64,000 nucleotides of DNA from an uncultured virus (IMG/VR IMGVR_UViG_3300008120_000033) (Duplodnaviria > Heunggongvirae > Uroviricota > Caudoviricetes), in the IMG/VR virus record IMGVR_UViG_3300008120_000033; one strand, given 5' to 3'. Below are positions 4,127-50,321 of this stretch, piece after piece (position 1 is the first letter of the stretch; each line of letters opens with the position of its first letter). The translations under genes and the position numbers were made by a program. The notes beneath the pieces were generated by a model. That model saw only the letters and a program-made list of their open reading frames with translations. It searched no databases and had not been told where the DNA came from.

Positions 4127-5440
4127 TTAGAGGAGTATATGTACCCGTTTTCTCTGGGGCAACCCCAGTCCGGTCAAATATGTAAAAGCCCCAACGGCAG
4201 AGTCAACCTGGTCATCATGATTGGTTGCTTCTGGAAACGATGAAAACTCGTCAAGCCAGTTTGTTAGCCATGCCCCACGGACTAATCTCACATTCCCATT
4301 GGCAACGGCTGCAGCGAATGGGCGCGCTCTCGTAACTTTGTCCCCCGTGGGCTTCATCGCGCCAAAGTCGTATCCTGGAACTACATATCTAGCGAACTGG
4401 TCAACCAGTGCCTTACCCGATGAACCAGGTTCCTGTTCCATTCTGATTGGAACGCCATGACCATCCTCCGAGGCTGTCTGGGCCATTAGCTCTTCAACCT
4501 TCTCGCCACGAACACGAGCTCTTCTAACATCGAGCACGTAAGCAATGCCACCGTCGAACATCATCAAAGTACCAACCGTCCAGTCCGGGTCGGGATTTGA
4601 CGCGGATGGCTCGGTCGCTGCCAAGTCCCAGTATCTGACAACCCGTGCCGAACTGGTGATATTCGGAATCTCGCTTCCGTCGATTATTACAAAACCGGTT
4701 CTGTCAAATAGGGTACCAAGAGTTGTCGACCACCAGTCGCCTTCCTCAAGCCTGCGACGCTCAACAGGGTCAAGGGCAGACAACGACTGTCGATAAGAAT
4801 CGGCGTCAATTCCAGGGTTGTCGGTAAGTCGTGAAGGAACGAAAATTCTTCCCTCTTTCCTTCCTTCAACAATAAATCTCTGTCTAACCCAGTTGGGAGC
4901 GGGGTTTGATGCCGCTCTCATTCTGAGGGGTATTTGGGACACGGGACCATTCGCGGGACGACGCAAACGGGAGAACATGTATCGGTAGTCAGATTCGCGG
5001 ATTTCTGTAACTTCGTCCATGCCAATGAACTGAAATTCTGAACCCTTGTAGCGAAGGTAGTCATTCTGATTGTTTAGGTAACCAAAAGAAATTCTCGCCC
5101 CAGAAGGAAATGTCGCAATAAAAGTATTGCTGTTCCAGTGAATGTCGTCGTAGTTGGACATCCAAGATTTAAAACGGTCCATCAGGGCGCCAGGAAGGGA
5201 GAGGTCGGCAAAAGTACGACGGAAGAGAATGGCTGAATATCCAGGAATGTCGACATACTGCAGGGCGGCCATTAGCAAAGCCGAGGACTTGCCACCGCCT
5301 GCTGCGCCACCAAAAAGGGCCTCGATTGCGTTTGTCCTCAAGAAGACTTTTTGGTTTATGGAGGGTTCTTCTGGACAAAACGGAGTTTCTTTAGGGGTTA
5401 AGTATTCAAGAACTTCTTCCCAGTTTGGTTTTTGAGCCAT
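4127..5440 (-). CDS. terL: Terminase large subunit
   Basis: Walker A GGAAGGGKS, Walker B FIGMDEVT, ASNP, DNP, nuclease RYWDLAA and HDDQVDS. Confidence 0.93.
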   Translation of the reverse strand: MAQKPNWEEVLEYLTPKETPFCPEEPSINQKVFLRTNAIEALFGGAAGGGKSSALLMAALQYVDIPGYSAILFRRTFADLSLPGALMDRFKSWMSNYDDIHWNSNTFIATFPSGARISFGYLNNQNDYLRYKGSEFQFIGMDEVTEIRESDYRYMFSRLRRPANGPVSQIPLRMRAASNPAPNWVRQRFIVEGRKEGRIFVPSRLTDNPGIDADSYRQSLSALDPVERRRLEEGDWWSTTLGTLFDRTGFVIIDGSEIPNITSSARVVRYWDLAATEPSASNPDPDWTVGTLMMFDGGIAYVLDVRRARVRGEKVEELMAQTASEDGHGVPIRMEQEPGSSGKALVDQFARYVVPGYDFGAMKPTGDKVTRARPFAAAVANGNVRLVRGAWLTNWLDEFSSFPEATNHDDQVDSAVGAFTYLTGLGLPQRKRVHILL

Positions 5441-5502
5441 AATCAATTCTTCCTGCACTCTTTCCGCCACGGCGAGCAATTTTGTGCGCTACTGTATGTT
5501 AT

Positions 5503-5755: not shown

Positions 5756-7843
5756 ATGGCGTGGAACTCAAGACAAAACAAGTCCCTTGATGGACCTCAG
5801 GCTAAGCAGCTCGGCTACGGGTTGCCTATTTCAAGCAATCCATCGTTCGTTGGCAAGTCCTATAGGGACTCGTGGGACATTGAGCGCGCATACCGCGAGG
5901 GCATGTCCAAAATTACGTGGGTTAATCGCTGTATTGACGCTATTTCCGGGAACCAGGCGAGACTTCCAATAATTCTCCGCAAAGACAACTCCAATATGGG
6001 TGAGATTGTTGTTGGGCGCGAAGCAAACAGGTCCAATCTTTTGGAGATTCTTAACAATCGTGCCAACCTTGGGGAGAACTCGTTTATCTTCCGTTACCGG
6101 CTTTCGGCTCAGTTGCTTCTCGGTACTCGCGGTGTTTTTATCGAGAAAATCCGTGGTCGAGACGGCGGAATAATTGCTCTGAACCTTCTTCCACCGCAAT
6201 CAACTGCGCCAATTCCAGACCCCAAGACTTTCGTCAAGGGCTACGAAGTGATGATGCCTTATGGTGAGAAGAAATTCCTAAAACCAGAAGATGTCTGCTG
6301 GATTAGGCGACCACACCCACTCGACCCATACTTGTCCCTGACCCCGCTGGAAGCAGCCGGTGTTGCGATAGAAATTGAAAACCTTGCCAAGCTTTATAAC
6401 CGCAACTACCTCCTTAATGACGGTAGACCAGGCGGACTCCTTGTTGTTCGTGGAGAAATCGACGAAGACGACAAGGAAGAGTTGAAGTCTAGATTTCGTG
6501 GGAACCTCGCGAAGACTGGCCACACAACGGTAATTGCGGCAGATGACGGAGTTGATTACGTCGACACCTCGGCCTCCCCAAGAGATGCCGCATATATTCA
6601 GATGCGTCAGGTCACCAAGGAGGAAATCCTTTCTGCGTTTGGTGTTCCCGAGTCGGTCATCGGAAATGCTGCTGGAAGAACATTTAGTAACGCAGCAGAG
6701 GAAATTCGCGTTTTCTGGATGGAAACAATGCTTCCTCACCTAGAGCCAATTGCTCGCGCGCTTGATGAACTGGATGATAAGTACTACGTCGACTTCGACA
6801 CTTCGGAAGTCCCCATCCTTATGCTTTACAAGCAAGAGCGAGACAGATACCTCCTCCAGGAGTTCCAGGGCGGCCTGATTTCGGCAAACGAGTACAGAAC
6901 TGGCTCGTCACGCAAGGAAGTTGAAGCCGACCTTGCTGACTCACTATTAGCAAACCCGAACCTCATTCCGATTGCCAACACCAAGAAGAAGATGGAGGAG
7001 AACGCAGCACAGGTCCCCGGCGCACCTGGAATGCCTGGAATGCCTGGAATGCCTGGAATGCCACCAATGCCGGGTGCCCCAATGCCTCCTGGGGCACCAG
7101 TACCCCTTGACCCAAACACAATGCAGGGAGCGATGGCTGAAGCAGCTGGTGCGGGCGAGTTGGCCCAAACAACCGTTCCGGCCGAGGCCGCACCACCAGT
7201 AACTCCGCCGCCCCCAGTACCCGGAATGACGATGGCTGGCGCAGACGCTTCTCTAGTTGAAACAAAGACTGAAGAAGATGAAATAGAAGAAAAAAATGAC
7301 TCTTACTTCGAAGACAAGTCGGAGATGGCTATCGAAAGATGGGCCGAAATTCTTTCAAGAAGCATTGAGCGCGTCATAGAAAGACAGCAAAGGGTCGTTC
7401 TTGAGAAGGTGACTGGAATGAAGGCCAGAAAGGCCCTATCTGCTGGAACCCTTGAGGTGGACGCAGTTCTAGCTATCGATACTTGGGATAGACAGATGGA
7501 AGAGGACATTAAGCCAATTCTTTCTGCGATTATTCGCGACTCTCACGATGCTAGAAAAGAATTTGGCGAAGCTAACGGAATCAAAGTAAAGAGCCTGCCA
7601 AAACTTGACACGGTAAAGACCGTTGACTCTCAGGTTGGTGTAATTAAGTCACTCAACAGGGAGAACGTCAATGAAATACAGCGCCTCTACATTGACAGCC
7701 TTAATCTCATTGACGGAGATAGTAGAGCGTCGATGATTCGTGAGGGAATTGTCGACATGTACACCAACTTTTTTGCCAAAGAACAGGCTGAAATTGCTAT
7801 GGATGTTGCCAGAAGTACCTGGAATTACGCCCAAACTGTTTAA
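5756..7843 (+). CDS. Portal protein (HK97 family) with Pro-rich linker and C-terminal extension
   Basis: WVNRCIDAIS, HPLDPYLSLTPL, NDGRPGGLL, EEILSAFGVPES, ISANEYR. Confidence 0.9.
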   Translation: MAWNSRQNKSLDGPQAKQLGYGLPISSNPSFVGKSYRDSWDIERAYREGMSKITWVNRCIDAISGNQARLPIILRKDNSNMGEIVVGREANRSNLLEILNNRANLGENSFIFRYRLSAQLLLGTRGVFIEKIRGRDGGIIALNLLPPQSTAPIPDPKTFVKGYEVMMPYGEKKFLKPEDVCWIRRPHPLDPYLSLTPLEAAGVAIEIENLAKLYNRNYLLNDGRPGGLLVVRGEIDEDDKEELKSRFRGNLAKTGHTTVIAADDGVDYVDTSASPRDAAYIQMRQVTKEEILSAFGVPESVIGNAAGRTFSNAAEEIRVFWMETMLPHLEPIARALDELDDKYYVDFDTSEVPILMLYKQERDRYLLQEFQGGLISANEYRTGSSRKEVEADLADSLLANPNLIPIANTKKKMEENAAQVPGAPGMPGMPGMPGMPPMPGAPMPPGAPVPLDPNTMQGAMAEAAGAGELAQTTVPAEAAPPVTPPPPVPGMTMAGADASLVETKTEEDEIEEKNDSYFEDKSEMAIERWAEILSRSIERVIERQQRVVLEKVTGMKARKALSAGTLEVDAVLAIDTWDRQMEEDIKPILSAIIRDSHDARKEFGEANGIKVKSLPKLDTVKTVDSQVGVIKSLNRENVNEIQRLYIDSLNLIDGDSRASMIREGIVDMYTNFFAKEQAEIAMDVARSTWNYAQTV
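7025..7060 (+). repeat. (CCTGGAATG)x4 tandem repeat encoding PGM repeats in portal
   Basis: Four exact 9-bp units. Confidence 0.9.
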
Positions 7844-7946: not shown

Positions 7947-10900
7947 ATGCCAGGTGAGGTTTTTGAATACAAGACAACTGCGCTAGGCACTGCCGAGGGC
8001 AAGGCCGACTCAGTTAACCTCAATGAGGCGCAGGGTATTGTCGAGTGTTTCGTTGCTGGCATCGGAAACAAGGACTCAGTTGGTGACATCGTTGCCACTG
8101 GTGCTTTTACAAAGAGCTTGATGCGTAGAAAACCACGTGTTGTATGGGGCCATAACTGGAATGACCCGATTGGTAAAGTTCTAGAGATTTACGAAGTTCC
8201 TCCCACCGATAATCGCTTGCCAATGAAGATGAAAATGGCTGGAATTGGTGGACTTTTTGCTCGCGTCCAGTTCAATCTTCAGTCCGAGAAGGGCCGGGAA
8301 GCCTTTGCAAATGTTGCCTTTTTTGGCGAGGAGCAAGAGTGGTCAATTGGTTACAAGACGCTACGCGCTCAGTATGACCAGAAATCTCAGGCAAATGTCA
8401 TCTTTGAGCTTGAACTATACGAAGTCTCCCCCGTTCTGCATGGTGCAAACCAGCTAACTGGAACAATCTCAGTTAAGTCAGATGAAAAGGGCGGAATGAT
8501 GACCCCATCACCGATGATGATGATGGAAGAAGACGAGACAGACGAAATCCAAAAGCAGCTATCGATGGTTATCGGTTCAAAGGTCATGATTGATGACGTT
8601 GCTGATGACATGATTACCTTCTCGCGTAGGGAAGACGAAGGAAAAGTGGGCAAGTACAAGTGCCACTACAGCCGTGGACCTGCCGGATTTATGTTTGGCC
8701 CACCACAGCGTGTTCCTATGGCTCCAAAGCCAATGCCAATGATGCCAATGGCTTCACCTGGAATGCCGTCAGTCCCAGAAAGAATTATGCGTCCTTCGCA
8801 GATGCCGGGAATCCCTGTTGCAATCAAGCCAGGCGAGGCTGGGATGCAAATAGTTCCGCTTCCGCCAGTTGATTACGAGGACTCAGGTAAAAAGCCTCGT
8901 CCGCAGTTCGACCCGAACAATATCGACTCAGAAGAGGCTGACCTCCGCGATTCTCTTCTTAAGATAGTTAAGCGCTATGGCAAGTTTAATGAAGACGCTG
9001 ATGGCGTTTGGGCTGGGTACACATCGGCCGCAGAAAATGATGTCAAGAACATCGGCGTCAAGTGCGCCAACTGCGTATTTTTCAAGGGTGGGAACTCTTG
9101 CCAGATAATCGACCTCGACATTGAATCTGAAGGTAAGTGCAGATTTGCAGTCATTCCTAAGGGTGTAGTCAAGGGTGATGTTGTCATCAAGAAGTCTTAC
9201 GAATACCAGACAGAAGCAAATGAAGAGGATTACCTTGAGGACCTTGAGGTTAAGTATCCAGGCGAACTAGCCGTAGCTGCTCTAAGAGGAATTATTGGGC
9301 GTAAGCGCAAGAAGAATCGTAAATACAAGAGCCTCGCTGACTTCGGTCGCGAGGGCGATGACATGAATGGCGCATACTGCATTCCGGTAATGCCGCAGTA
9401 TGCGTTCCGTGTAAAGCAGGCTCTCGACCCAATTTTTGATTACCACTATGCCGACGCTTATGTGGATACGGATGGAATTGTTATCACTTCGGGGGCCAGC
9501 TTTGAGCTCATCGACGCAATTGATACCGCGCTTGATAATTTAAAAAAAAAATCCTTAAATGATGGTGGCATAGAAGAAAAGGCTATTGGCTACCGCCTAG
9601 GCAGGGCAATTGGTAGCCGAATGGTTGACCGACCAAATCTTGGTGGCGGTCGCTCTCGTGGAAGATTCTTCACCAGCTCTGGTGCTCAGGACTTTGACCC
9701 ATTCACCGCAAGAGACGTTGACCTTGATGGAATTGTTGGTGAGGGCCTATTCATGCGAGGCACACCCCTTGCGCAGGCCGACCCAACCCCAGACGGTCCT
9801 GGCTCAATACGCAACCCAAAGCCATCCCCCGAGCAGCTCAAGAAGCCAGGCGCACCTGGCGCGCCAGTATCAAAGCCAGCAACAGGACTTTCGAGTGGAA
9901 AGCTCTATGAGGTTCCACGTGTGGATGACCCAGATGTTGCGTCGTTTGACAAAATGGCCATGGCTGAAGAGCAGAGAGAACAGCTACAGGGTGTTCTTGA
10001 TGGGGCAAGTGACCCAGACCAAATAAAGAGACTGCGTAAGGCAATCAACGAACTCGACAAATACATGAATCGTGTCGAGAAGATGTCAGAGCGCGAAATG
10101 CGTCAGCAGGATGCTGGAGACGTAACCAAACTCTCAAGCGGTTACCAGCGCTTCCTCAGCACCCCAGACAATAAGCGTAGCGATTTTGACAAGGTTAAGT
10201 ATCAGGGCCCACTCAACAAGTTCAAAGAAGGTGAAAGACTTTCCTCTGGAAAGGTTCTTGACTCCGACAATGTAACCCCAGAAGAGCAAAAGCAAATTCT
10301 GGATGATGTTTATGCCAAGATGACAGAGCAGATTATTACTGCTCTTGAAGAAATTGCCAAGAATCCAGGCAATGCGAGATGGGAAATCCCGTGGCGCCAA
10401 CTGGAAATCATGGCGAGAAACGCAACTGGCCAGAAGCGTGTTTATCAGGGAACAAACCAGCTGATGCTGACACTAATCAGCAGCGCTAGGGGCTACAAGA
10501 CGAATCGCTGGGCCGGAGCTGGTCAGTGGAAAAAGATTGGCGGCAAAATAAGCAAGGAGGCCATGGAAAAGCGTGGCGTCCAGATTCTTGCTCCGAACAA
10601 AACAGAGACAGCCATACTCGATAGGGATGGAAATGTAGTTGGCAGCTATCGCGGCTTCCACACAACCACAGTCTGGAACGTCGCAGACGTTGAGGGTCTC
10701 CCACCAGAAATGTATGAATTAGATGATGTTCTTCAGTTGTCACCAGAGCAGAGACTCCAGGACCTGGAAGATGTAATCAAAGAAATTGCTCCAGCATGGA
10801 AGGAAGTCAAGGGCAATAGGGCTTTCTATAGCCCAATGGCTGACGAAATCACAATGCCGCAGTTTGAGCAGTTCAAGGACCCATTGAACTTCTACTCAAC

Positions 10901-13900
10901 GCTATTCCACGAGACCGTTCACTGGACATCACACCCATCAAGAATGAACAGAAAACTTGGCAAACAGTTTGGTGATGCTGATTATGCATTCGAAGAACTT
11001 ATTGCCGAGATTGGTTCGGCATTTGCTCTTGGCGCAATGGGTGTTGAAGCTCCAGTGAGAAAAGACCACGCACCGTACTTGGCTTCATGGCTCCAGGCTC
11101 TACGTAGCCGTCCAGAGGCATTGAAAGACGCAATTACTCAAGCTCAGCAGGCTGTTGACTTCCTGATGAATCGTTCGGCAACCATGCGCAAGCGTGCTGG
11201 TATTCCGGATGGCGAGCGCAAGGGCAAGGACGAGGCAACCGCTGAAGTCCCAATGATTGTTGGATTTGAGGATTCACCAAAGATTCCGACAATTGGTGGC
11301 GTGCGTGGAACATTTGGCGACGAAGACATTGAGGACATAGTTCCTCCAGCTCCAGCAGAAAAGCCAAAGAGAACGAGGAAGGGCTCAAAGGCCTCCGGCG
11401 AGGCTTCAACCGAGGCCCTGTCTAGCGGCGCAATGATGAGCAACCTCAATACCGTTGATGAAGACATTATCGGCGGCGGCTATATCCGTCGTGAGGGTCG
11501 CGACGGGTTAGCTAAGGACGTATCTGGACGCTTGTCCAGTGGTGCATCGCGTGGTTCAGTCCAGCATAGGAGCGGTGACGAAGCTCGTGCCGTAAAACGC
11601 TCACCAGGAACGGCACATTTCGGAAGCCTATATGGATTCTCTTATGAGCCAACAGAGCAGCAGAAAGACATCATCGATACTGGTCTTGCTTTAATGTTTG
11701 GCGAGCAAAAAGGCATCATGACTGTTTCTGCTGGTGCCGGCTCAGGGAAAACAACAACCCTCAAGGCATTGATGGCCGCAGCTGAACGCGAGTTTGATAT
11801 CACGCGATTCATTAATCGACCGGAAGCCCTAAAGGAAAAACTGGATTTCATCTCCGAGAAGTACAGCACCGATGATGACAAGTTTGACCTTTCCTCAATG
11901 TCGGAAGAGGACAGGGATACAAAACTTTCTGAACTTAGAGACAAATTTAAGTCACCAACGGCGTACTACGTTGTTTTCAACAAGAAGAATGAAGAAGAGG
12001 CTGCTGCTGAATTCAGCGACAACACTGGTGTATCAACACTAAACAGGCTGTCTTGGTGGTCATTGTTGCTCGGTCAGGGTGACGAAAAGTATGGCAAGAA
12101 GTTCCGCGACAAGGTAAAAATTTCCACCCAGGATAGAGGGACATTTGCCAGAAGAGACAAAGACGGAAAACTTCAAACAATCAAGTTCACAAAAGTTGAT
12201 GGAACAGAGGGTGAGACGGTTGGGTACGACCCGGGCTGGAGAGACCTTGGTTATTTGAAGCTATCTGACTCAAACGGCTGGATTAAAGCACTCAAGCTCA
12301 CCGATAGAGAAGAGTTCTCTGCTGGCAAGGGTGCCGGAATGCCAACCCCAATAGCGGGAGTAAATCTAACAGTTAGAGACTATGCAGACATTCTTAACAA
12401 GGCACTCAAGGCATTCGCAAACAGTGCTGACGAGAAAATCGGCCCACAGCACTTCAAGAGAGCAGACATCAACAAGGGCAGAGCATCTGATTCAATTGTT
12501 GACACTGAATGGCCTTCAATTCCAGACCAGTGGTTGAAAGACGCCAATGATGGTTGGAACATGGTTACCGACCCGGACAGCATCGTCCTTCCAGACCAAG
12601 GGCAGACAGACAAACTCTGGGCGATGACCGACCCAGACCTGAGAAGCGACCCTGGCTTGATTGGTCATGCCACAGGAAAAGACCTAGAGGCAAACGTTCA
12701 GGTTCCAAAGGAAACAAAAGTTGGGGACATTCTCCCTGACGGACGTGTGGTTATCTCTGTAAAGACAGGCCAGAAAGGCAAGAACTTCCAGGCCACGGTC
12801 GCGCGGAGATACGCAACTAAGGATAACCCGCTGTCAATGTTCATGATTGACGAAGCTCAAGATATGAACCCAGTAATGGAGCAGGTGTTAAATAAGAACA
12901 GAGACAATCTCTCTATTCTACTTGTTGGCGACAAGAGGCAAGCAGTTTATGCGTTCCGTGGTGCTAAAGACATTCTTTCCTCACTAAACGGCGACTATGA
13001 CCTCCCATTGAATGAGTCGTTCCGTTATGGACCAACTGTTGCTTGGTTGGCAAACCTGATTCAGTCACAGGGCAATATTGACGATTCTGAATTGGGAATA
13101 GAAGACAGATTCCACCACGTTGCCGGTTTGGCTGTTGATGTAATCAACAACGACTTCGACATGGATGGCCTTTCCCCAGAAAGAGCCCGCGAAGCCTTAG
13201 TAAAGATTGAGTCAAAGTACAAGAGCGACAGAATCAGAATTGCCCAAAAAGGCATTCGTGATGATTTCGATATGACAAGCATGACTGTTGACCAGAGAAG
13301 AGAAAAGCTCAAAGCAGCAGACAAGAAGTACAAGACAAAGCTTGCATCTTTGTCTGATGATGAAATTGTTTCAGGTATTGAAATCAACAAGGCTCTCTCC
13401 AAGGAGCTCCGAAAAGTAGAAGATAGTTACGTTGCTCTTGCCGATATGGACGAGGCAGCAAGAAGCAAGGAGCTTGCGTCACTAAAGGATGTTCTTTCAA
13501 AAGAAGCAGCTGGTGAGTTTGTTGCCGACATGAAGGACGCTGACGCAATCCTTACGCGCGATAATGCAACAATTATTTATGAAGCATTGCAGTTCATCCA
13601 AAACTTCCAGCCGAGATTCACCAGAAACGGACAGGAACTCCCTCCCGTTGTGATGATTCCAGCGACAAAACACAGAGAAATGAAAGCATTCTTTGAGCAC
13701 TTGTCGTTCGTAATGGATACACCGGTAGATAAGCAGATAGAGCTGACAAAGAAGGGGTTGCGCCCGAAAGCGTCTTCATGGATTGGTGATGTTTGGGATG
13801 CTGGCGAAATAAAGCGCAGGGCTCAACAAGAGCAGTATGCACAGCTCAAGTCAATGTACAAGCTTGTTACTCGCGGCAATAAAAACCTCGGAATCCCACC

Positions 13901-16850
13901 ACGCAGGGCATGGGAATACCGAAACATGTTCGCTAATGGCGTAACGCCAGGAATCAAGGCGCCAGTCATTGTTCCAGAGAGAAAGATGCTCAATCTTTCC
14001 AAGCTCAAGGACGTAAATGTTGATGACCTAAAGACCATATCTGCACAGCGCGGAACGGGTTTCACCTCAACGTCAACAGCAAGTCGTGCCAGAAGATTTG
14101 AGGTAATTCCAGACACAACCGGTAAAGGAAAGAGCAAGGTTCAGTGGCACCTCCAGCTCGCGGATGTGAACGGAAAGCGTGAGGGCGAATGGACGGGGGC
14201 CATTGAGTTATTTGACTGGGGCATTGATAGCGGTGGTGAATACACCGATACCAAGACTGGAAAAGTCGTAAAAGCGCCACAGGGTGTCTACTTCAGAGAC
14301 ATGATGAGAATCCTAGAGGATAGTGATTACTACGGTGGAAAAGTCCAATTCAAGAAGAACGGTCTCCGAAACAAGGAAGGTTCTGGAAAAGAGTTTGGAG
14401 ACACTGTTGTTATCAAGGGCGATACCGACGAAGAAACTGCTTTTATTCTCAACGACATAGTAAGCCGCATGAGGACTTCAGCAAAAACGCCAAATGCTGA
14501 CGTTGAAATAACAACCGCGCAGCTATCCAAGGGTAGAGAGTGGGATAGGGTCCGCGTTGCTTCTGACTTCCGTAATCCTCCAGACCTCGACATAGACCCA
14601 GAAACTGGAAAACCAGTTGAGAGTCGCTCCAGAAGAGAGGAACTCAACATTGTTTATGTTGCTCTAACTAGAGCAAAGAGAGCAATCGACCCGGGCAAGG
14701 CAATATACGACCTTTACCTCTCTGACACTGTGTCGGCAAGACAAAGGGAGGCAATCGACAAGGCTATTGAGGACGGCAGAATGCCCGACTATCTCAATAA
14801 GCCGGAAGGCCTGTTTGACCCATACTCTGGGGAAATAAATGCACCAACACCAACAATCGAAGACGACGACGATGAGCCTGGCGACTACGAAGTTGGTGGT
14901 GGCGATGATGGCAAGTCAATTGACGACATAATCAAAGAAAAAGAAGAGGAAAAAGAAGACGAAGACGCCAGCATCGACGGAATCGAAGACATCGGTGACG
15001 AGGACGCGTCCAATAGTCCAGACATGGACCAGTTCGTTGACTTCCTTTCCTCTGGTCGCTCAGGTCGCGGACGCAGAAACCGCAGACTAAATCGTTCCCG
15101 TCAAACCCCATGGTCCGACGAAGACAGGCAAAGATTTGCTGACCGTGACAGGCTGAGGGCAAATCGTCGCCCTGGCAAGCGGAATGATGGTCCGTCGCCA
15201 GAAGAGTTCTTCTCTAGCGGTCGTACCGATGTGGAGCTAGAAGGAAGATTTGGTCGCAGACTGCGCCAGGGCGGAGCTCAGCGCGCACCAAGGAATGCAA
15301 GACCAAGCACACAAGGAATTGCAGGTCTGAGGTTGTCTGGAAACCCAGAAACAAACTCTAAAGCTAGACGCGAACTCGATTATTCAATGCGCGTATGGGA
15401 CGGATTCAAGAGAACCGGCATAGCCCTTGACGTGAATAGTGATGATTCTGGAACTGATGCAAGACAGAGACAGATTCGCGAAGCGATGAACAACGTTTCA
15501 CAGAGAATGGCAGACAGACCACAAATTACTGTTGGTAGCGTTTCGTCAAACAACCCTAACCAGAACCCAACAGCCTCAACATGGATGCTCTCCACGGAAA
15601 AACTGAAGGATACGATAAGAATTCCAACGGAATACTCTGTCCAGACCGACCCAGGAACCGGAAGAAAAGACATTACTTGGACCCAATCGCGTCCACTAAG
15701 CAATGATGAGCTGGCATCCCTGCTGAACCTTGACAAGCCAAATGCGGCAAAACTTTCGGACCCCGATGCCGGAATTAACCACGATGCGGTACGCATGCTT
15801 GTTGCCGAACTTGGAAAACAGCCAGAGTTTGCTGGATGGAGGCTTTTTGCCCCTGTCACAAGAGCAGACGAAGACTTTGCTGAAATGAACGTAATGGAAC
15901 GATTTGCGGAAAATCTTGGCAGGGCCAACATGCGTGACCGATTCATAATCGAAACATTTGGCAAGGACGCATTCCCACACTGGTTTGACGAGGAAGAAAA
16001 TAACCCAATCTCCCCAGAGGAATACGATTCACTTGGTGAGGTGAGCAGGGTTTCACAATTCCGTGCTAGCGGCCGATTCGATAAAGATAGCGCCACCAGG
16101 GGTGACTCACCAGTTGAGGAAATGCTCATGGAGGAGTCAATTGATGAGGCAGAACTTCCTGACATACAGGAGCCAGATGTTTCTGCGGAGGAGCTAAGGG
16201 CTGACAAGACTGCGCGCAAGGACTTTGAACTTGACGCTCTTCTCAAGTATCTGGGTATCCCAGAAAAGGGATGGCAACAGAGAATGCGCGAAAGACTGCA
16301 GCAGTCGTTCGGCATGGATGATGTTGGTCTTGGCGCACAGAGTGACTGGAAGAAAAACGGAGTTCCAATCGCGTATATCAACCAGATGATAAAGGCTGGT
16401 CTCATTCCAGACGCCAGTTCTGTTTGGCGAGATGGAGACTCCGGTTCAAAACTGGATTCAGAACTCAGCAACGCGAAACATGCTGTTTATGAGGCACTTA
16501 ATGAATTTATTGACAAGAGTTTTCCGAATTCGCCGCAAAACAGCACAAAAACGCGCAACTACATAACAAACAGCACAGATATGGCCCTATATCTGTCGGA
16601 GTCAGCAAAGAGAAAAGGTTCCGTATTCAGCCCAAGAAAGGGCGATGAACCAAGATTCAGCAGCAACGAGCTACAACAGATTGTCAACAGATTCAATGAA
16701 GCATTTGGAACGAATCACACCATTGAAGACATCTTCAGTAGAGAGCAGCTAGAGACAGCACGCAGAAGAATTGAAGAGGATGGCGAGACACTCTCTGGAA
16801 AAAAACGAGAGAGAAGAAAGGTTAAGCCAGACAATTTCGCCAACGATTAA
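7947..16850 (+). CDS. 2967-aa polyvalent protein: HK97-type prohead protease + Cys4 (HiPIP-like) module + ArdC-like ssDNA-binding/zincin + UvrD-like SF1 helicase + unknown modules
   Basis: DSVGDIVATGAF, WGHNWNDPIG, WSIGY, LYEVSPVLHGAN (protease); CANC..C..C at 9063-9140; W.IPW..Y.G.N..L, HETVHWT (10908), YAFEELIAE; AGAGSGKTT (11730), DEAQD (12849), VGDKRQAVYAFRG, SFRYG, KGREW, YVALTRAK. Confidence 0.88.
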   Translation: MPGEVFEYKTTALGTAEGKADSVNLNEAQGIVECFVAGIGNKDSVGDIVATGAFTKSLMRRKPRVVWGHNWNDPIGKVLEIYEVPPTDNRLPMKMKMAGIGGLFARVQFNLQSEKGREAFANVAFFGEEQEWSIGYKTLRAQYDQKSQANVIFELELYEVSPVLHGANQLTGTISVKSDEKGGMMTPSPMMMMEEDETDEIQKQLSMVIGSKVMIDDVADDMITFSRREDEGKVGKYKCHYSRGPAGFMFGPPQRVPMAPKPMPMMPMASPGMPSVPERIMRPSQMPGIPVAIKPGEAGMQIVPLPPVDYEDSGKKPRPQFDPNNIDSEEADLRDSLLKIVKRYGKFNEDADGVWAGYTSAAENDVKNIGVKCANCVFFKGGNSCQIIDLDIESEGKCRFAVIPKGVVKGDVVIKKSYEYQTEANEEDYLEDLEVKYPGELAVAALRGIIGRKRKKNRKYKSLADFGREGDDMNGAYCIPVMPQYAFRVKQALDPIFDYHYADAYVDTDGIVITSGASFELIDAIDTALDNLKKKSLNDGGIEEKAIGYRLGRAIGSRMVDRPNLGGGRSRGRFFTSSGAQDFDPFTARDVDLDGIVGEGLFMRGTPLAQADPTPDGPGSIRNPKPSPEQLKKPGAPGAPVSKPATGLSSGKLYEVPRVDDPDVASFDKMAMAEEQREQLQGVLDGASDPDQIKRLRKAINELDKYMNRVEKMSEREMRQQDAGDVTKLSSGYQRFLSTPDNKRSDFDKVKYQGPLNKFKEGERLSSGKVLDSDNVTPEEQKQILDDVYAKMTEQIITALEEIAKNPGNARWEIPWRQLEIMARNATGQKRVYQGTNQLMLTLISSARGYKTNRWAGAGQWKKIGGKISKEAMEKRGVQILAPNKTETAILDRDGNVVGSYRGFHTTTVWNVADVEGLPPEMYELDDVLQLSPEQRLQDLEDVIKEIAPAWKEVKGNRAFYSPMADEITMPQFEQFKDPLNFYSTLFHETVHWTSHPSRMNRKLGKQFGDADYAFEELIAEIGSAFALGAMGVEAPVRKDHAPYLASWLQALRSRPEALKDAITQAQQAVDFLMNRSATMRKRAGIPDGERKGKDEATAEVPMIVGFEDSPKIPTIGGVRGTFGDEDIEDIVPPAPAEKPKRTRKGSKASGEASTEALSSGAMMSNLNTVDEDIIGGGYIRREGRDGLAKDVSGRLSSGASRGSVQHRSGDEARAVKRSPGTAHFGSLYGFSYEPTEQQKDIIDTGLALMFGEQKGIMTVSAGAGSGKTTTLKALMAAAEREFDITRFINRPEALKEKLDFISEKYSTDDDKFDLSSMSEEDRDTKLSELRDKFKSPTAYYVVFNKKNEEEAAAEFSDNTGVSTLNRLSWWSLLLGQGDEKYGKKFRDKVKISTQDRGTFARRDKDGKLQTIKFTKVDGTEGETVGYDPGWRDLGYLKLSDSNGWIKALKLTDREEFSAGKGAGMPTPIAGVNLTVRDYADILNKALKAFANSADEKIGPQHFKRADINKGRASDSIVDTEWPSIPDQWLKDANDGWNMVTDPDSIVLPDQGQTDKLWAMTDPDLRSDPGLIGHATGKDLEANVQVPKETKVGDILPDGRVVISVKTGQKGKNFQATVARRYATKDNPLSMFMIDEAQDMNPVMEQVLNKNRDNLSILLVGDKRQAVYAFRGAKDILSSLNGDYDLPLNESFRYGPTVAWLANLIQSQGNIDDSELGIEDRFHHVAGLAVDVINNDFDMDGLSPERAREALVKIESKYKSDRIRIAQKGIRDDFDMTSMTVDQRREKLKAADKKYKTKLASLSDDEIVSGIEINKALSKELRKVEDSYVALADMDEAARSKELASLKDVLSKEAAGEFVADMKDADAILTRDNATIIYEALQFIQNFQPRFTRNGQELPPVVMIPATKHREMKAFFEHLSFVMDTPVDKQIELTKKGLRPKASSWIGDVWDAGEIKRRAQQEQYAQLKSMYKLVTRGNKNLGIPPRRAWEYRNMFANGVTPGIKAPVIVPERKMLNLSKLKDVNVDDLKTISAQRGTGFTSTSTASRARRFEVIPDTTGKGKSKVQWHLQLADVNGKREGEWTGAIELFDWGIDSGGEYTDTKTGKVVKAPQGVYFRDMMRILEDSDYYGGKVQFKKNGLRNKEGSGKEFGDTVVIKGDTDEETAFILNDIVSRMRTSAKTPNADVEITTAQLSKGREWDRVRVASDFRNPPDLDIDPETGKPVESRSRREELNIVYVALTRAKRAIDPGKAIYDLYLSDTVSARQREAIDKAIEDGRMPDYLNKPEGLFDPYSGEINAPTPTIEDDDDEPGDYEVGGGDDGKSIDDIIKEKEEEKEDEDASIDGIEDIGDEDASNSPDMDQFVDFLSSGRSGRGRRNRRLNRSRQTPWSDEDRQRFADRDRLRANRRPGKRNDGPSPEEFFSSGRTDVELEGRFGRRLRQGGAQRAPRNARPSTQGIAGLRLSGNPETNSKARRELDYSMRVWDGFKRTGIALDVNSDDSGTDARQRQIREAMNNVSQRMADRPQITVGSVSSNNPNQNPTASTWMLSTEKLKDTIRIPTEYSVQTDPGTGRKDITWTQSRPLSNDELASLLNLDKPNAAKLSDPDAGINHDAVRMLVAELGKQPEFAGWRLFAPVTRADEDFAEMNVMERFAENLGRANMRDRFIIETFGKDAFPHWFDEEENNPISPEEYDSLGEVSRVSQFRASGRFDKDSATRGDSPVEEMLMEESIDEAELPDIQEPDVSAEELRADKTARKDFELDALLKYLGIPEKGWQQRMRERLQQSFGMDDVGLGAQSDWKKNGVPIAYINQMIKAGLIPDASSVWRDGDSGSKLDSELSNAKHAVYEALNEFIDKSFPNSPQNSTKTRNYITNSTDMALYLSESAKRKGSVFSPRKGDEPRFSSNELQQIVNRFNEAFGTNHTIEDIFSREQLETARRRIEEDGETLSGKKRERRKVKPDNFAND
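9539..9551 (+). other. Candidate slippery site T-TTA-AAA-AAA-AAA (A10)
   Basis: X-XXY-YYZ heptamer in phase with the ORF; longest A-run noticed in window; both shifted frames stop within a few codons. Confidence 0.5.
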
Positions 16851-18559: not shown

Positions 18560-21500
18560 ATGTCGGGTGAACCGGTAAAGCACAGGGTAATAACGTCTGG
18601 ACGTCTAGTATCTCCAGTTGCCTGCTGTAGGGACTTCGATGCTAGAGCGCTTCGTTTCAAGCAATCAATCAACGGAAGCGTCTACTCAGGCAGGCTTCAA
18701 GCAGATATAGCCGTAAAGGCGCTTGGTTGGGGCATCTCTCGCAAGCAAGACGAGGGAAACACTGACAATAAAAAGCGTGAATTCACCGGGGAATCAATGC
18801 CCGGTGTTGAAAAAAACGCATACGGGTATAGGTGGAAACCAGAAGCCAGATGGGAACCGGGCTCAAAGCTTGTTCTATCGCCAACAATTGAGAGCATTCG
18901 CGGAATGGATATCGAGCCTAATTTTGGCTGGATTCCAGAAAAGGAACGCGAAGTTGATTCGTTTGACAAGCTGCTGAATAAGCTGCGAAATAAACCACAC
19001 ATAAAAATATCTAAGTTTGATGTAAACCCTAAGACTGACGAAGTTGACACATCTTCTGAAAAAATTGTCGACCCATTTGCAATGTCAACAGGCATGACAA
19101 TGGAGGAACGCAGAAGAAGGCTCAACAAGGGCAAAAACGTAGAAGAAAAATCATTAGGACCCAATCTTGGTGCGCGAGTTCCTGGCGGTTCATTGCTAGC
19201 AAGGGCAGCTGCAGCAGTTGGAATACTTAGAGATGAAAATAATAAGTTTAGGTGTCCTCCAGGAACGCCAGCAGCTAACCAGTTTACGGACGCCATGGGC
19301 TCAAACTGCTTTGGGTTCAGTGCTAGTAGATTCGCAAGATTTGCTGCTCGCCAGGCCGCAGAACTCTCCAACCAAGGAGAAATGCAGGGACTTAGAAACA
19401 GTGCACGAAATGTACTTGACTTTGTTTACAACGGAAGATGGTTTCGTGACTTAGCTGATGCTGACCCAGCAAGAATTGGTCGCAGTCCATGGTATGACGC
19501 AGCAACTGGCGAAAGAATAGAAACACCTGACTGGCGTGACGTTGATGGCCCAGAAAATCTCCGCGTAACAACTAATGGGATGATTAACGCGCAAGATGAA
19601 ATTGCGCGAGCTGATGCTGAAGTTCTCAGTCTACTGGATGACCTTGGTGTCGACATAAGTGATGAGGCGAGAGCCACGAATGAAGACCTTGGTCAAGCAT
19701 TTGACACACTGCGACAGATGGCTAATAATGGCGACCCACGCGGATGGGATGTAAACCTTGTCAACGCAAACGGAGTAGACCAGCCAAGACTGACACCACA
19801 ACAAGTCGAGCAGTTTGTCACAGCCCGCCTACAGGCCGTTCAGGGATGGACTTCACTCTCAAAAGAAGAACAAGACCTCATGGTCAAGGCTGATACTGCA
19901 AGATATTACGAAACCGAAAGAGCATTCCTTGAGTCCCTGCTAGTTCAGTTCAAGAGAAACCCATCTGCAGCAAAGTTTCTTGGAACAATCATGTACGACT
20001 CGGACTCGAACCACGAGGCCGGAACATCACTAATGCGCGATGCTGCTCAAATTATCGACATGACTGACCCTGTTACTGGGAAAACAAGAAAAGTCAAAAT
20101 ACCCGGGGAAATGCGTGGGGTAATCGACTTCAACATGGACATGATTATGAGCAACCAGGAAACCATGCTTCCAAACATGGGTGCTGGCCAGCGCCTGTCA
20201 ATAGCTGCCATTGGCGGAAGAACAGACGCCGAATCTCAGATGGCTCTTTCACATTTTATGCTAAACGCTGACCTTGCGGCTCGCCACATGGCTGGACTCG
20301 TAGATGGTCCAAAATCATTCACGAGACACATAGGGATACACGAATTTGCCCACTTGGTCCAGGCTCAGGGATTCATGGAGGAGATTGACCGCAGAGCAAA
20401 AGCCGGAATGCTTGAGGTTCCGCAGTTCTCTAAGCGCGGCGACTATCTAGGGCAGAAAAAGATAAATAGCCTTTACGACTTAAGCGCTGGCGACATCATG
20501 AACATGATGACACAAACAGCTGACGGGATAAACCTTAAAGAACTTGGTGATGTGATGAGCCGCCTAGAGGGTGTTGCTCAGTTCTCTGGCGCATATCCAA
20601 GAGAATATGAAAAGGGAAGCGAAATATGGGCGCTCGAAGCCCTTGCTGAACTTTATGCGCTGAGGGAACAAAAACTTATAAGCGGCGATGACGTCGACTC
20701 GGTTCTGGAGTTCATGGATGACATCATGGCAAAGAGAGCTGAAACTTCGGCAGCAATCGCAAGCGCAACATATGACCTGGATGAGGTTGATTCTCCAGAC
20801 ATTGATTCACCAACAGCAGACGTTCTTCCTGGAATAACGCCAGAAGAACTAGACGCAATGGCAGAAGAAGCGCTAGTCCGTAGGGTTGCCGACAGGAGAG
20901 AAACTCTAAAAGCTTTCAGAAGTGACTATTCGGGACTCACTCAGGAGGAGATGTTTGATGTTGCTACAGAAATAGCGACAGATTACACTATCGCTAAAGA
21001 AAGTCTGGATGAAATAGAAAAGTCGGAAATCCCATCTGGCTTAACACCGGAAGAAACAGATGCTGCAACAAGAGCCAGACAAGAGCTTCTTGATATAGCC
21101 ATAGAAGAGGCTCAATTCCATGAGAAGAAGTACGACGATGCACGTCGTGAATGGAAAAAGAAGTATGGAATTGGTGCTCGTTCGGAAAACGCAAGATTTG
21201 ACGCAGAAGTAGGGTCACTAAGGGAGTCTCGCGGCCTACTTAGTCCATCGGAAGCTGCTAAAAATGCAAGAGCAAGACAGCTTGATGCTATTTCTGAAGA
21301 CATAACACAAATCGATGATAAAAAAGCCATCAGAAAAATGGCCGACACCCAAGTTCTGATGAAGGCAAATTCTGATGATGTCGACAAATCAGTAGAACTA
21401 GCTGAAGAATTCGACACCATGAAGAATGCCATGATTGAAAAACTTAGGGCTGGTGGAGATAAACGCAGCAGGTCGAGAATTAGTAAAGAAATCGATGAAA

Positions 21501-33714: not shown

Positions 33715-33790
33715 TGGCTGGCGAGGCAGGGCTCGAACCTGCGACCAAAGGATTAACAGTCCTCCGCTCTGCCAACTGAGCTACTCGCCA
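33715..33790 (-). tRNA. tRNA-Asn(GTT)
   Basis: Cloverleaf, loop CT-GTT-AA, GTTCGA, encoded CCA. Confidence 0.95.
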
Positions 33791-33809
33791 ATGATTGAAT
33801 ACTACCTTG

Positions 33810-33890
33810 TGGGCTAGGCGGGATTTGAACCCGCATCCCTTTCGGGAGAGGATTTTAAGTCCTCCGTGTATGCCATTCCACCACTAGCCC
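33810..33890 (-). tRNA. tRNA-Leu(TAA)
   Basis: GGGCTAG acceptor, CT-TAA-AA loop, long variable arm; CCA not encoded. Confidence 0.93.
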
Positions 33891-33925
33891 CCTGCTGCTG
33901 GGCTACGCACCCCACGCTGTCAAAA

Positions 33926-34001
33926 TGGCGCGTCGGGCAGGACTCGAACCTGCAATCGACAGATTAGAAGTCTGTTGCCTTATCCATTTGGCCACCGACG
34001 C
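33926..34001 (-). tRNA. tRNA-Arg(TCT)
   Basis: GCGTCGG acceptor, CT-TCT-AA loop, CCA. Confidence 0.95.
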
Positions 34002-41139: not shown

Positions 41140-44100
41140 ATGTCTGAGAATAAAGAATTCCCTATTCCCTTTGATGAGTCACGTCGTGGAAAGCGTGCAG
41201 GTCATGAGGAGAAGTCAATTGGCCGTCGACTCCTTGGTCGCGCAATAGATAGACCATCAATTGGAAGAAATAGGGGTCGAAACAACAATGTTGACCTACC
41301 CACTGGGGGCAAGCCAGGAAAACGCCGCCCAACGGGAACAACGAGAGACATCGACGGCGATGGCTGGGTTGATGAAGGAACCACGAACCCCAGATGGATG
41401 GGGGTCCCGAGCGGGAATGGGAACAGCCCTGGGGTACCTAATAGGAATAGAAAAAATCCCAACGTAAAACCAAACGCCCCTAAGTCAAGCCGCGAAATAG
41501 AGTCAATATTTCTTTCCAGTGGGAAACTTCGCGAGCGTCCAGTAGTCGAAGAGATAGACAGAAACCTGAAAGATGGCTCACTTAGCACCTCTCCCAACAA
41601 GGGAATTATTGGTATGCGTGATGGCGGATTTTCGGTCGCAAAAAAGCCAAGTGAGTCTGATTCATTTCTACGTCAGGAATACCGTGAATGGTCAATCGGT
41701 GACGAGAAGGTTATCTTCGGCATACCAGAACGCCCTGCATCAATGGCCGATGACCCCGGTTACTACGACGGTGATGCAAAAATCGTACCCATGAACCCTT
41801 ATGTTATTTCAGGATTGCCAGCAGACTCCAAAGAGGGGCAAGAAATAGCAAAAAAGTGGGCTTATGCGAAATCGTCAGCAGAAGTTGCCGGCGACGAAGA
41901 ACCTACATACATAGAGGCACTTCTATATGCTGGGTCGCGTGGTGACTCCGAGGCAATGAGCATATTCGATGAATTTGCCAAAGTGGGAAAAGCTGCTGCA
42001 GATAAGGCAAAAGAAGAAAGAGCTGCGACATATCTTCAGTCATACAACAGAGAAGATGTTCAGCAGGACCTAAAAAGAGCCGGTCTCGACAACCTCTCGA
42101 TTGATGATTTATATCTAGTTCATGAAACCAAATATGAACCGGAATTCGACGAAGATGGCAACTTGATGCTTAGGCCTCTTGGTGATTGGGTTCTCAAGAA
42201 TCTAGATGGCCAGGATGCAACATACGATAGGGAAACAATTCATTTTGCAATGAACCACCTTGCCGGCGGCCATCTTATGAGGCAGAGAAACGACGAGGGT
42301 GAAAACAGGTACATCATAGTATCCAAGCTTTCAGACGTTCTTGAAATGAACCCCGGCTCCATTGATGCCTTAAATCCTGTAGATGTTGGGCTCGTTCCAC
42401 CACCCAATGAACCATTGAGGCTTCCAAAGAAATCCATAAAAGTTTTAGAAAATCCAGATACGGAAGACGTCGACTCCCTTGTGTCACAAACTCTCAGGGA
42501 AATGGGTGCAAAACACATATTCACTGCGGGTGAGTACGGGAATAAAACCGAAACAAGTGCAATTCTAAAGATTGCCTCAGAACTAGGCGCAAATGTTGAG
42601 CTTCACGCAAATACACCGAGTGGTTCAATTGAGCAAATTGACAAGGGCACAAATTTATCTGGCTCTTTCATTGGTGCCAACTGGCTTGGTGAAATGAGCG
42701 AAAACTCAATAGCGCGACTCGGCAATAATTCAAAATGGCACGGATTAAAGGAAACCGGCTACTCGATGCGCCGAGACGAATATGAAGATTTGCTAAATTC
42801 AAATTCTGGGAAGCTCGGTTCTGACACTGGTAGAAGTGAGGTTCTTTTTAGCGGCAAAGCTCCACAGTATCCACGTCCACCGGCATACGGTCCACTTATT
42901 GGCGGAGCGGAAGAATATTTCGATGGAGTTAAAGACTGGCAAGAATTCGCAGAAAAGTACCGTGGCCGAGATGTTGTATGGATTGACTATGAAACAACTG
43001 GGTTAGTTTTTGATGAGTTTGGCAAAAGCTCGGCAAATGGCAAACCGGTTCAGCTTGGTGCCGTCAAAGTAAGAGATGGCAAAATAGTTGACCGATTTAA
43101 TGTATTTATAAATCCAGGCGAACCACTTGGCGAATGGTCGAGACAGTATCTCCGTGGTCCAGGTGGTGAGAACCTTACTGACGAATGGCTATCTACTCAG
43201 ATGTCTTTATCTGACGCTCATAGACAATTTGCTGAGTTTGCTGGAGCTGGTGCAATACTTGGCCTCCAGAATGCAGCTTTCGATAAAAACGTTCTCGAAG
43301 ATGAACTCAAGGAAAACGGCATAGATTGGCAACCAACTGGGTACATCGACACCATGGACATGTCCGCCATGACCTTGCCAAAGTGGACGCCAGAAAACCA
43401 AGATGGGCCATCAATGGTCGGCCGCGACGGAGAAAGACGTGCATCCAGCAGTCTTAAGGCCATAACGGAATACCTGGATGTCGAGCTTGGTGACAAGCAC
43501 CACACAGCCGACGCTGATGCTGAAGCGGCAGCCATGGTTATGGAGAACCTCATTGCTAGGGCCATAGAAAATGGCTGGACAGCTGACGCAATAAAGCCAG
43601 ATACGCGACGCGAGTTTGTGGAGAAGCGTAAAAAAGAATTTGACGAAAAAGTAGCAAAATTTGAAGAAGACAAGAAGTCTTACCTTGACGCGTTAGCCAA
43701 TGAGTCCGATGGAGACAAACTTTCATCTGGGGCAACCAAGACAAAAGCACGTAAATACGGAGATAGCAAACCTGGCGGTGAGGAACGATTTATTAGAAAT
43801 AGTTCAACATGGCTAAAAGGCTTAAGCTCAAAACAGATTGCAGAGCTTGTTGTTCCCGAATCCCATGAACAGTACATAGAAATGCTGCTTGATGATTACT
43901 TCCCTGCCCGAGATGGTGAAAATCCAGGCTTTGTGGATGCATTTAAAAACAACTTGATTGAGTCAATGAAGAGGAGTCCGTGGATTAAGGGCGACTACTC
44001 AGAAGAATCGACTGAAAAGATTAGAGAACTTGTTGAGTCTTCTCTTGAGGCCAGCCCGTCACTGAAGTGGGCATTTGAGAACTTTGGTGCCCCCATGTTT

Positions 44101-46053: not shown

Positions 46054-46069
46054 TTCGGGGGGGGCTATA

Positions 46070-49567: not shown

Positions 49568-49639
49568 GGGCGCTTAGCTCAGCGGTAGAGCAACTCGTTT
49601 ACACCGAGTAGGTCGGGGGTTCGAGACCCTCAGCGCCCA
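49568..49639 (+). tRNA. tRNA-Val(TAC)
   Basis: GGGCGCT acceptor, TT-TAC-AC loop. Confidence 0.93.
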
Positions 49640-49642
49640 CAT

Positions 49643-50125
49643 ATGACAAATAAATTTATCCAGGTTGAACTTTCCTGGCACGAATATGCGATGGCATCCG
49701 AAATCGGTCGCTTGCGACAATTAACTTCGATACGTCGCGGCAGTGCCGATAATCATGGTTTTACAGGGCTGGGATGGAGCGAACATATCGAAGGTGCCTG
49801 TGGAGAGATGGCTGTTAGTAAGTTCCTTAACGTTTACTGGGATGGTGGGATTGACACGTTTAAAGACGCCGATGTCGGAGCAACAATACAGGTTAGAACT
49901 AGGTCATCGCACTCATATGAACTCATAGTAAGGCCAGACGACTACGACGATGATATTTATGTTCTGGTGACCGGAAAATGCCCTGTTTACAGAATTTGGG
50001 GATACATTTCCGGCCTTGAGGCAAAGAATAGCAATTACCTCCAAACGCACGGAAATAGGCCAGCTGCTTATTTTGTGCCCAAAATTGCACTTAAGGAGAT
50101 AAGTGAACTAGCTTCCAAAAACTAG
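49643..50125 (+). CDS. Hypothetical phage protein (possible nuclease fold)
   Basis: GACGEMAV..DV...QVRT. Confidence 0.6.
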   Translation: MTNKFIQVELSWHEYAMASEIGRLRQLTSIRRGSADNHGFTGLGWSEHIEGACGEMAVSKFLNVYWDGGIDTFKDADVGATIQVRTRSSHSYELIVRPDDYDDDIYVLVTGKCPVYRIWGYISGLEAKNSNYLQTHGNRPAAYFVPKIALKEISELASKN

Positions 50126-50198
50126 GGCCCTTAGCTCAGTTGGTTAGAGCGCCGGACTCATAATCCGTTGGTCGTGGGTTCAAGTCCCACAGGGCCCA
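50125..50198 (+). tRNA. tRNA(CAT), probably Ile2 (lysidine type)
   Basis: GGGCCCT acceptor, CT-CAT-AA loop; resembles ileX-type tRNAs. Confidence 0.88.
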
Positions 50199-50213
50199 CT
50201 AACATAAGAATCT

Positions 50214-50303: not shown

Positions 50304-50321
50304 GTACACAAGGATGACACT

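Follow-up and report, generated by a model that had tools for sequence, protein, structure and literature searches.

A conserved run of ten adenines as a putative slip site between a phage head protease and its polyvalent cargo

In the 64,000-nucleotide stretch of an uncultured Caudoviricetes virus analyzed here (IMG/VR record IMGVR_UViG_3300008120_000033, hereafter the window), a giant open reading frame (ORF) of 2967 amino acids (aa) and 330.8 kDa (7947..16850, + strand; from the ORF list, its translation, Pfam and PHROG) joins a prohead protease to a polyvalent cargo, and a run of ten adenines (A10; 9542..9551, + strand, in the codons TTA AAA AAA AAA at 9540-9551) is placed at the junction. 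Based on the sequence and its conservation, we consider it fairly probable that this run is a programmed slip site between the head protease (aa 1-535) and the cargo, resembling the one behind dnaX gamma and used mainly by RNA polymerase. A recoding site is the best explanation because the run is conserved at the DNA level against codon usage, both other frames are closed and the site falls on a module boundary, while polymerase slippage is favoured in the window because the run has 10 A's and not 7, the stop of the +1 frame is conserved and no stimulator was found. A sequence-only reading of the window had already proposed that programmed slippage yields protease-only protein beside the fusion, and the comparative evidence (conservation of the run, closed frames, sister lineages with the cargo in the -1 frame) strongly supports it.

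According to the proposed mechanism, faithful reading of A10 would give the 2967-aa fusion, whereas RNA polymerase slipping on the run would add A's to the mRNA or drop them from it. Standard translation of the slipped mRNA would reach a stop within 2-4 codons in either of the other frames and release a protease-only protein of ~59.5 kDa, ending where the stand-alone proteases of relatives end. The mixture of products would set the number of protease copies that bring cargo into the prohead, and the cargo (ArdC-N, MPTase and helicase) would be packaged in the head and then cut free inside it. We infer the occurrence of slippage, the polymerase as slipping agent, the product ratio, the packaging and the cleavage.

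Results

The run and its reading frames

The junction consists of three T's (9539-9541) followed by A10 (9542-9551), and its zero frame reads AAT (from 9537) TTA AAA AAA AAA TCC. The sequence-only reading, which had reported TTT plus A10 at 9539-9551 in X-XXY-YYZ phase, was right in all its coordinates, as it was about the stops that close the other frames: the -1 frame ends at TGA (9560..9562, + strand; ATC CTT AAA TGA) and the +1 frame at TAA (9556..9558, + strand; CCT TAA). An mRNA with one A too many, or a ribosome slipping by -1, is predicted to give a product ending in ...LKKK-ILK (538 aa, 59.6 kDa), and an mRNA with one A fewer a product ending in ...LKK-NP (536 aa, 59.3 kDa), in agreement with the slip product of roughly 535 aa that had been expected. 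A10 is the sole A-run of at least 8 in the 64 kb (A7 occurs 15 times, A8 and A9 not at all) and, because it is ten bases long, it has the length of the A/T run (about 9 or more, within a coding sequence) of slippage sites of the Thermus thermophilus dnaX type.

Other functions of the same region were considered and rejected. A sigma-70-like promoter at 9511-9539 (TCGACG, 17 nt, GATAAT, ending at the run) was discarded as a conserved function, given that the region holds 2 sigma-70-like matches versus 2.6 ± 1.5 by chance and that the -10 element is not kept in relatives. An in-frame restart of the cargo was likewise dismissed, the first in-frame ATG after the run lying at aa 559 and not being conserved. 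One metatranscriptome library prepared by poly(A) selection yielded a contig of exactly 208 nt (9309-9516) that ends 26 nt before A10; its capture through an internal A-tract is possible, and it may also be carried-over DNA. The contigs from the two RNA libraries (X19 and X20) cover 9309-9516 and 8902-9066 and both stop short of the run, and a raw-read DNA run (X22, of which ~3% was read) gave 0 reads on the stretch.

Conservation at the junction

The best 80 of 169 confirmed IMG/VR loci were examined at the junction (alignment search A1). The sequence-only reading had suggested looking for the run at this junction in relatives, and we found A9-A11 there in 77 of the 80 loci (61 with A10, 8 with A11 and 8 with A9), the run being absent from 3 distant ones. 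The fusion is in frame in 76 of the 77 run-bearing loci, and the exception (L044, with A9) is on a contig nearly identical to the window. These 76 in-frame loci correspond to 36 distinct 312-nt contexts, which form 22 clusters of <85% identity in their 600-nt flanks.

Mixed AAG and AAA lysine codons in homologues had been named beforehand as the observation that would speak against slippage; instead, NNA AAA AAA AA[A/G] was present in 22 of 22 clusters. The codon that precedes the lysines is TTA, CTA, ATA, GTA or ACA (encoding L, I, V or T), always with A as its third base, and such NNA codons are the minority for these amino acids in the same ORFs. The share of AAA among the lysine codons elsewhere in these ORFs is 48% overall and 27% in the lineage of the window. 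Treating the 22 clusters as independent, the log10 probabilities of these codon choices sum to -37; the clusters share ancestry, so the probabilities quoted here are upper bounds on significance, which weakens the case for slippage to that extent. Synonymous sites flanking the run are clearly scrambled among the relatives, and the ten A's form the sole fully invariant block in the DNA alignment of 22 sequences. Judged from these alignments, the run is under selection as DNA.

The stops around the run are conserved as well. Both non-zero frames are closed within at most 5 sense codons in 22 of 22 clusters, compared with 6.9% of 29,357 background positions. Taken separately, the -1 frame and the +1 frame each stop within at most 5 codons in all 22 clusters (background 38% and 23%, respectively), and the +1 frame stops within at most 1 codon in 16 of the 22 (background 8.5%), the stop usually arising from a rare NTA codon two codons past the lysines that is followed by A or G. 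This conservation goes beyond what the ribosome needs, because a pure ribosomal -1 shift requires the -1 stop only. The junction therefore shows both the nucleotide conservation and the close stops in both frames by which slippage sites of the T. thermophilus dnaX type are recognized.

The run also separates two protein modules. Immediately after it begins an N-terminal cargo module (9567..9746, + strand; G-IEEKAIGYRLGRAIGSR..DRPNLGGGR..D.DLDGIVGEG; BLASTP and family alignment), in which EEKAIG starts at 9573 as had been read from the sequence. The same module stands at the start of a stand-alone protein of 1210 aa (ORF 41140-44772; module at 41200..41379, + strand), and the proposed equivalence of the post-junction peptide with the N-terminus of this protein was confirmed by BLASTP (E 3e-7, 45% over 67 aa, matching aa 21-80 of the 41140 ORF). 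Because the module that follows the junction is the N-terminus of a stand-alone protein, the A10 run is located at a true module boundary. The module is kept across the fusion family in the junction alignment. The ORF at 18560 (P0003) was tried as a third bearer of the module and rejected (BLASTP E 0.45).

Reading frames in related loci

In some relatives, the junction separates ORFs that lie in different frames. Short proteases were sought among proteins of 294-937 aa, with aa 1-535 as the query, and the best 120 of 926 were inspected. The first kind found among these comprises seven clusters that end just past KKK (P0106, P0107, P0108, P0109, P0112, P0114 and P0128) and whose nearest in-frame relatives are 70-99% identical to them, P0112 being 99.3% identical over the protease part to the in-frame P0039. 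P0106 and the cargo-only P0086, which begins at aa 559 of the window's protein, are on one 81-kb contig. The DNA of this pair was not found in IMG/VR or in metagenome contigs (best match 80% identical), and the run length of P0106 is deduced from its protein tail. Out-of-frame relatives of this sort are prone to misannotation as a "stand-alone protease" plus an "ArdC/helicase protein" with a wrong start (e.g., P0106 and P0086).

Three metagenome loci of the window's own KKK subfamily (L181, L182 and L183) read xTA AAA AAA AAG, with the zero frame stopping after 2-5 codons and with protein tails that match those of P0108 and P0109. Their cargo is in the -1 frame, which stays open to the end of each locus (90 codons in L181, 495 in L182 and L183) and has, directly after the run, the peptide expected from in-frame relatives. 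L182 and L183 represent a lineage and not a random error, because they are different contigs with one base difference next to the run.

The second kind of short protease among the same 120 comprises 29 clusters of 456-560 aa ending in ..GG[S/L/Q]KK or similar (P0116 and P0117, which have the pattern in another context, are left out of this count). This kind is represented by 16 IMG/VR loci in 8 distinct contexts, with 63-100% aa identity to P0147. Their protease ORF ends with TCA AAA AAA TAA or a similar sequence (A7 or A8, with the stop within 0-4 codons). Each also has a -1-frame ORF that opens 12-98 nt before the run, exceeds 1148-1333 codons, leaves the end of the locus and encodes a conserved peptide immediately downstream of the run. 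In L092, the first residues of this -1-frame cargo ORF match the window's post-junction module (E 0.006). GTG or TTG at codon 2 offers a possible start for the -1 ORF in 5 of the 8 contexts; in the other 3, ATG, GTG and TTG are all absent before codon 14-36, so that the first possible start falls within the conserved module or past it. In the A7 group, a possible hairpin located 6-7 nt downstream of the run has 93% of its cells paired; it lacks covariation, and its pairing is equalled in 57 of 500 shuffles. A third state of the junction was seen in L101, L103 and L105 (at about 5344-5362), in which TCA AAA AAA GGT (GGSKKG, A7) is in frame and the stops come after one codon in the -1 frame and after 15 in the +1 frame.

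The A7-plus-stop relatives (L090-L121, e.g., L092:5354-5490) further share an invariant GGTGG 3 nt before the run, and the arms of the hairpin 6-7 nt after it read GCCC...GGGC. Both elements also encode conserved residues (Gly-Gly, Pro, Gly), and they may have a role in the RNA.

Downstream structure and translational signals

RNAalifold recovered no consensus pair downstream of the run in the 22 sequences, and the window's own downstream 89 nt fold at a z-score of -1.47, which is not significant. The sequence-only reading had pointed to a possible hairpin (GGTGGC-ATAG / CTAT-tg-GCTACC; 9564..9594, + strand); its arms are indeed present, starting 12 nt after the run, whereas its role as a stimulator is unsupported, as its fold of -9.6 kcal/mol is not significant (z -1.26, with 19 of 200 shuffles folding as well) and has 0 consensus pairs in the 22 sequences. 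By reading the sequence, no GGAGG-like or other Shine-Dalgarno (SD)-like element was found in the 30 nt upstream of the run. Thus, a -1 frameshift cassette would lack its stimulator here, whether an upstream SD-like element or an RNA structure 5-9 nt downstream.

A heptamer of the X_XXY_YYZ type is available, since A_AAA_AAA occurs in phase twice and is conserved. T_TTA_AAA, which had been taken for the slippery heptamer, is not conserved among the relatives; they have C_CTA_AAA, C_ATA_AAA, T_GTA_AAA or C_ACA_AAA in its place, and the A-run alone is kept. The window encodes ten tRNAs (33715-34001 and 49568-57090). Among them are Lys(UUU) (57016-57090), Leu(UAA) and Leu(UAG), the tRNAs for the AAA, TTA and CTA codons at or next to the putative slip site.

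Domains and genomic surroundings

The N-terminal part of the giant protein is a Peptidase_S78 domain (HK97-type prohead serine protease; aa 28-174, 8028..8468, + strand; PF04586 and phrog_80). In searches with the 2967-aa ORF, it scores 40.6 bits with PF04586, versus a curated Pfam cutoff of 21, which places it in the S78 family, and it matches the head maturation protease phrog_80 with an E-value of 2e-24. By tblastn, aa 1-183 were matched by 76 phage records at <60% identity, most of the 40 listed matches being annotated as capsid or head maturation protease; among cultured phage records, nothing beyond the protease domain was matched, and blastn of the window DNA against 50,697 phage records returned zero matches. 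H69, S133 and H165 are invariant in alignment A3 and are candidate S78 catalytic residues. The part corresponding to the short product (aa 1-535; 7947..9551, + strand; alignment A3 and AlphaFold) contains the protease, a Met/Pro-rich linker, a Cys-rich segment and a conserved C-terminal domain that closes with a helix at the K-run. In relatives, stand-alone proteases of 456-486 aa have their C-terminus at the homologous ..GG[SLQ]KK. Its AlphaFold model is poor overall (mean predicted local distance difference test score 54, predicted template modelling score 0.27), and the confidently predicted parts are about aa 200-255 and 470-534, with the last predicted helix at 519-534.

In the cargo, ArdC-N (aa 787-873) and the MPTase-PolyVal zincin (aa 953-1062) occupy 10305..11132 (+ strand; Pfam E 4.6e-14 and 3.4e-38), a region that also matches the anti-restriction protein phrog_7245 (E 6e-64), and they are followed by a UvrD/SF1-like helicase region (aa about 1251-2246; 11697..14684, + strand; Pfam AAA_30, AAA_19, UvrD-helicase and UvrD_C, and phrog_1967). 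ArdC-N, MPTase and further domains above the Pfam cutoffs in one polypeptide make this a polyvalent protein by domain content. It also has the virion/packaging gene context of such proteins: the portal gene (5756-7843) is just upstream of the fusion ORF, late genes come next on its other side, and the opposite strand carries the large terminase (4127-5479).

In the 2967-aa protein, [L/F]SSG is found 7 times, against a mean of 0.11 and a maximum of 2 in 2000 shuffles; the 2070-aa protein (18560-24772) has it 3 times and the 1210-aa protein (41140-44772) twice. This peptide was found in none of the other 36 ORFs of at least 150 aa and nowhere in aa 1-535, and these motifs are candidate cleavage sites of the head protease. 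The giant proteins at 41140-44772 and 18560-24772 have a common paralogous domain (..PINPFVISGL..EG.E.A.KW..; ..LSVDDLYLVHET.YEP..DGNL..RP.GD..) and a HExxH-like motif each (HEYGHW, HEFAH), and the 1210-aa protein also contains an RNase_T exonuclease domain (Pfam). Among other homopolymers, four T7 runs are found within 170 nt (1399-1565) near the left end of the window, and a G8 run at 46057-46064 is its sole G-run above 6. The 18 DNA runs that contain the stretch as contigs have lake or freshwater labels, except for five labelled fungus metagenome.

Alternative explanations

Several observations weigh against a polymerase slip site at A10. A search with aa 330-760 returned 89 large homologues (1818-4759 aa), nearly all from protease plus ArdC/MPTase families, and the junction alignment built from it had 89 rows (the window and 88 others; P0087, which gave no local match, was left out). 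[L/I/V/F]KKK is found at the aligned columns in 54 of the 89 rows, whereas 34 of the 88 fused homologues are devoid of the K-run and of its ~19-aa insert; P0086, which starts after the junction, also lacks KKK. Two further sets of loci gave distinct junction peptides without the run in 25 of 39 cases (72 of 80 loci examined) and in 37 of 52 cases (69 of 80 loci examined), the 8 and 11 loci dropped being those in which the match did not reach the junction. So many junctions without a run mean that fusions of this family can do without a slip site. The Lys-Lys-Lys tripeptide is conserved at the protein level too, where some constraint may act. For the A7 relatives, ribosomal -1 frameshifting at A_AAA_AAA is at least as good an account of the sequences as slippage of the polymerase, and it may be the main mechanism in them. 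Finally, an in-frame A10 makes the huge fusion the default, and for a head such a majority product seems costly.

The ribosome may slip instead of the polymerase, either by -1 frameshifting on the in-phase A_AAA_AAA heptamers or by sliding on poly(A), which would give the ...KKK-ILK product and the same outcome of protease-only protein beside the fusion. We regard this as a serious rival, albeit an unlikely one. It is favoured by the conserved X_XXY_YYZ phase of A_AAA_AAA, by the persistent out-of-frame relatives, all of which have the cargo in the -1 frame (in L181-L183 with the classical A_AAA_AAG), by the 7-8 A's of the A7 relatives, which are short for polymerase slippage and have a candidate hairpin at 6-7 nt, and by the phage's own tRNA-Lys(UUU). 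On the other side, the window's subfamily has no conserved downstream structure and the window's own fold is not significant, no SD-like element was read upstream of the run in the window, the three extra A's and the stop in the +1 frame are conserved while unneeded by a -1 shift, and the hairpin of the A7 group shows no covariation and pairs no better than 57 of its 500 shuffles. Slippage could also occur during replication, with the run acting as a DNA-level contingency (phase-variation) tract that toggles between cargo-ON (A10) and cargo-OFF (A9 or A11) and with no recoding at all. The A9 that breaks the frame in one of five near-identical IMG/VR contigs would suit such a tract, and so would the seven protein clusters and three metagenome loci that are out of frame, above all P0112 next to its almost identical in-frame relative P0039. 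We find it improbable, however, given that nearly all run-bearing IMG/VR loci are in frame, that the cargo ORF of the out-of-frame lineages is open for 495 to >1333 codons, that the post-run peptide is kept in A7-type loci at up to 37% aa divergence in the protease part, which is unexpected for a switched-off gene, and that a simple OFF state does not need conserved stops in both frames.

Without any recoding, Lys-Lys-Lys could serve the protein itself (for example as a linker, a site of cleavage or a patch that binds the capsid), with the A-run as its by-product. In line with this explanation are the frequency of KKK in the junction rows, its position where a predicted helix ends and a conserved domain closes, and the KK with which the stand-alone proteases of relatives also end. 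It is nevertheless very improbable, because it leaves unexplained why AAA is used exclusively although AAG is the commoner codon, why the variable codon before the lysines keeps its third-position A, why a rare NTA codon makes the +1 stop and why some relatives have the cargo in another frame. The sequence-only reading had cautioned that the length of the homopolymer could be a sequencing error, in which case the fusion itself would be the frameshift product; the in-frame fusion of the window would then be an artefact. One of the five near-identical IMG/VR contigs (96-100% identity) does have A9; the other 4 have A10, as has the complete genome G001 (151,107 bases, with terminal repeats), which is 100% identical to the window over 9300-9800, and the Logan contig of another run (X8) crosses the stretch without an indel. 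Together with in-frame runs in 76 independently assembled loci, this makes an error in the window extremely improbable, and we reject the caveat for it. A slip site used mainly by RNA polymerase is thus the reading that we prefer for the window.

Comparison with known systems

The closest parallel is dnaX of T. thermophilus (tau/gamma), for which the available text of PMC5009743 describes slippage at a 9-base run with close stops in both non-zero frames and ~50% of short product. As there, the window has an A/T run of 9-10 within one long ORF and near stops in both frames, and the truncated slip product would have its N-terminus in common with the full-length protein (PMC5009743, same text). 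The window differs in that its gene encodes a phage head protease with a polyvalent cargo and not a clamp-loader subunit, in that slippage is demonstrated for T. thermophilus whereas we infer it here, and in having relatives of the reverse polarity.

The -1 frameshifting of Escherichia coli dnaX and of insertion sequence (IS) elements is resembled by the in-phase A_AAA_AA[A/G], which is exactly A_AAA_AAG in L181-L183, with the cargo in the -1 frame. In E. coli dnaX, the slippery sequence is accompanied by an SD-like element upstream and a stem-loop downstream. The shifted product of E. coli dnaX terminates at once, as is predicted for the window; in contrast to E. coli dnaX, neither an SD-like element nor a stem-loop was found conserved in the window's subfamily.

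Iyer et al. 2017 (PMC5512222) described polyvalent proteins from phages and conjugative elements, which in the available text are predicted to be packaged and delivered and are said to have their assemblin-like peptidase always at the C-terminus. The window's protein resembles them in combining ArdC-N, MPTase-PolyVal and a helicase in one giant protein of the head locus, and differs from them, as far as that text goes, by its N-terminal S78 protease (PMC5512222). The word "frameshift" occurs 0 times in the same text (PMC5512222), and no description of slippage at a prohead-protease/cargo junction was found in the portions of the full-text literature covered (supplements and subscription journals being outside its scope), where the cases of recoding in phages that we met were tail-chaperone and capsid genes. 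If the proposed mechanism is true, slippage would have a new role in phages, with tailed phages using recoding to set how many protease copies drag anti-restriction and helicase cargo into the capsid. The natural variants of the run (A7, A8, A9G, A10 and A11, in or out of frame) should in any case be useful for studying how run length sets slippage rates.

In retroviral Gag/Gag-Pol and the tail-chaperone G/GT of phages, as would be the case here, a fixed fraction of a structural or assembly protein is synthesized with an extension that carries extra domains into the particle. The window is unlike both in polarity, as its fusion is the default and slipping would give the short form, and in its extension, a cargo of ~2400 aa. 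The A7-type relatives, on the other hand, match the polarity of Gag/Gag-Pol and G/GT, with the short form as default and the fusion expected from a -1 shift. More tentatively, and with slightly less than even confidence, we suggest that the K-run boundary is a family-wide, two-way recoding switch that doses a head-packaged anti-defence polyprotein: in the in-frame lineages (A10-A11) a slip would end the protein, in the out-of-frame ones (A7, A8, or A9G plus stop) a slip would make the fusion, and a change of run length by a single base would flip the polarity and retune the dose of cargo. If so, this junction would be a bacterial-virus counterpart of Gag/Gag-Pol, the set point of which evolves via the slip site.

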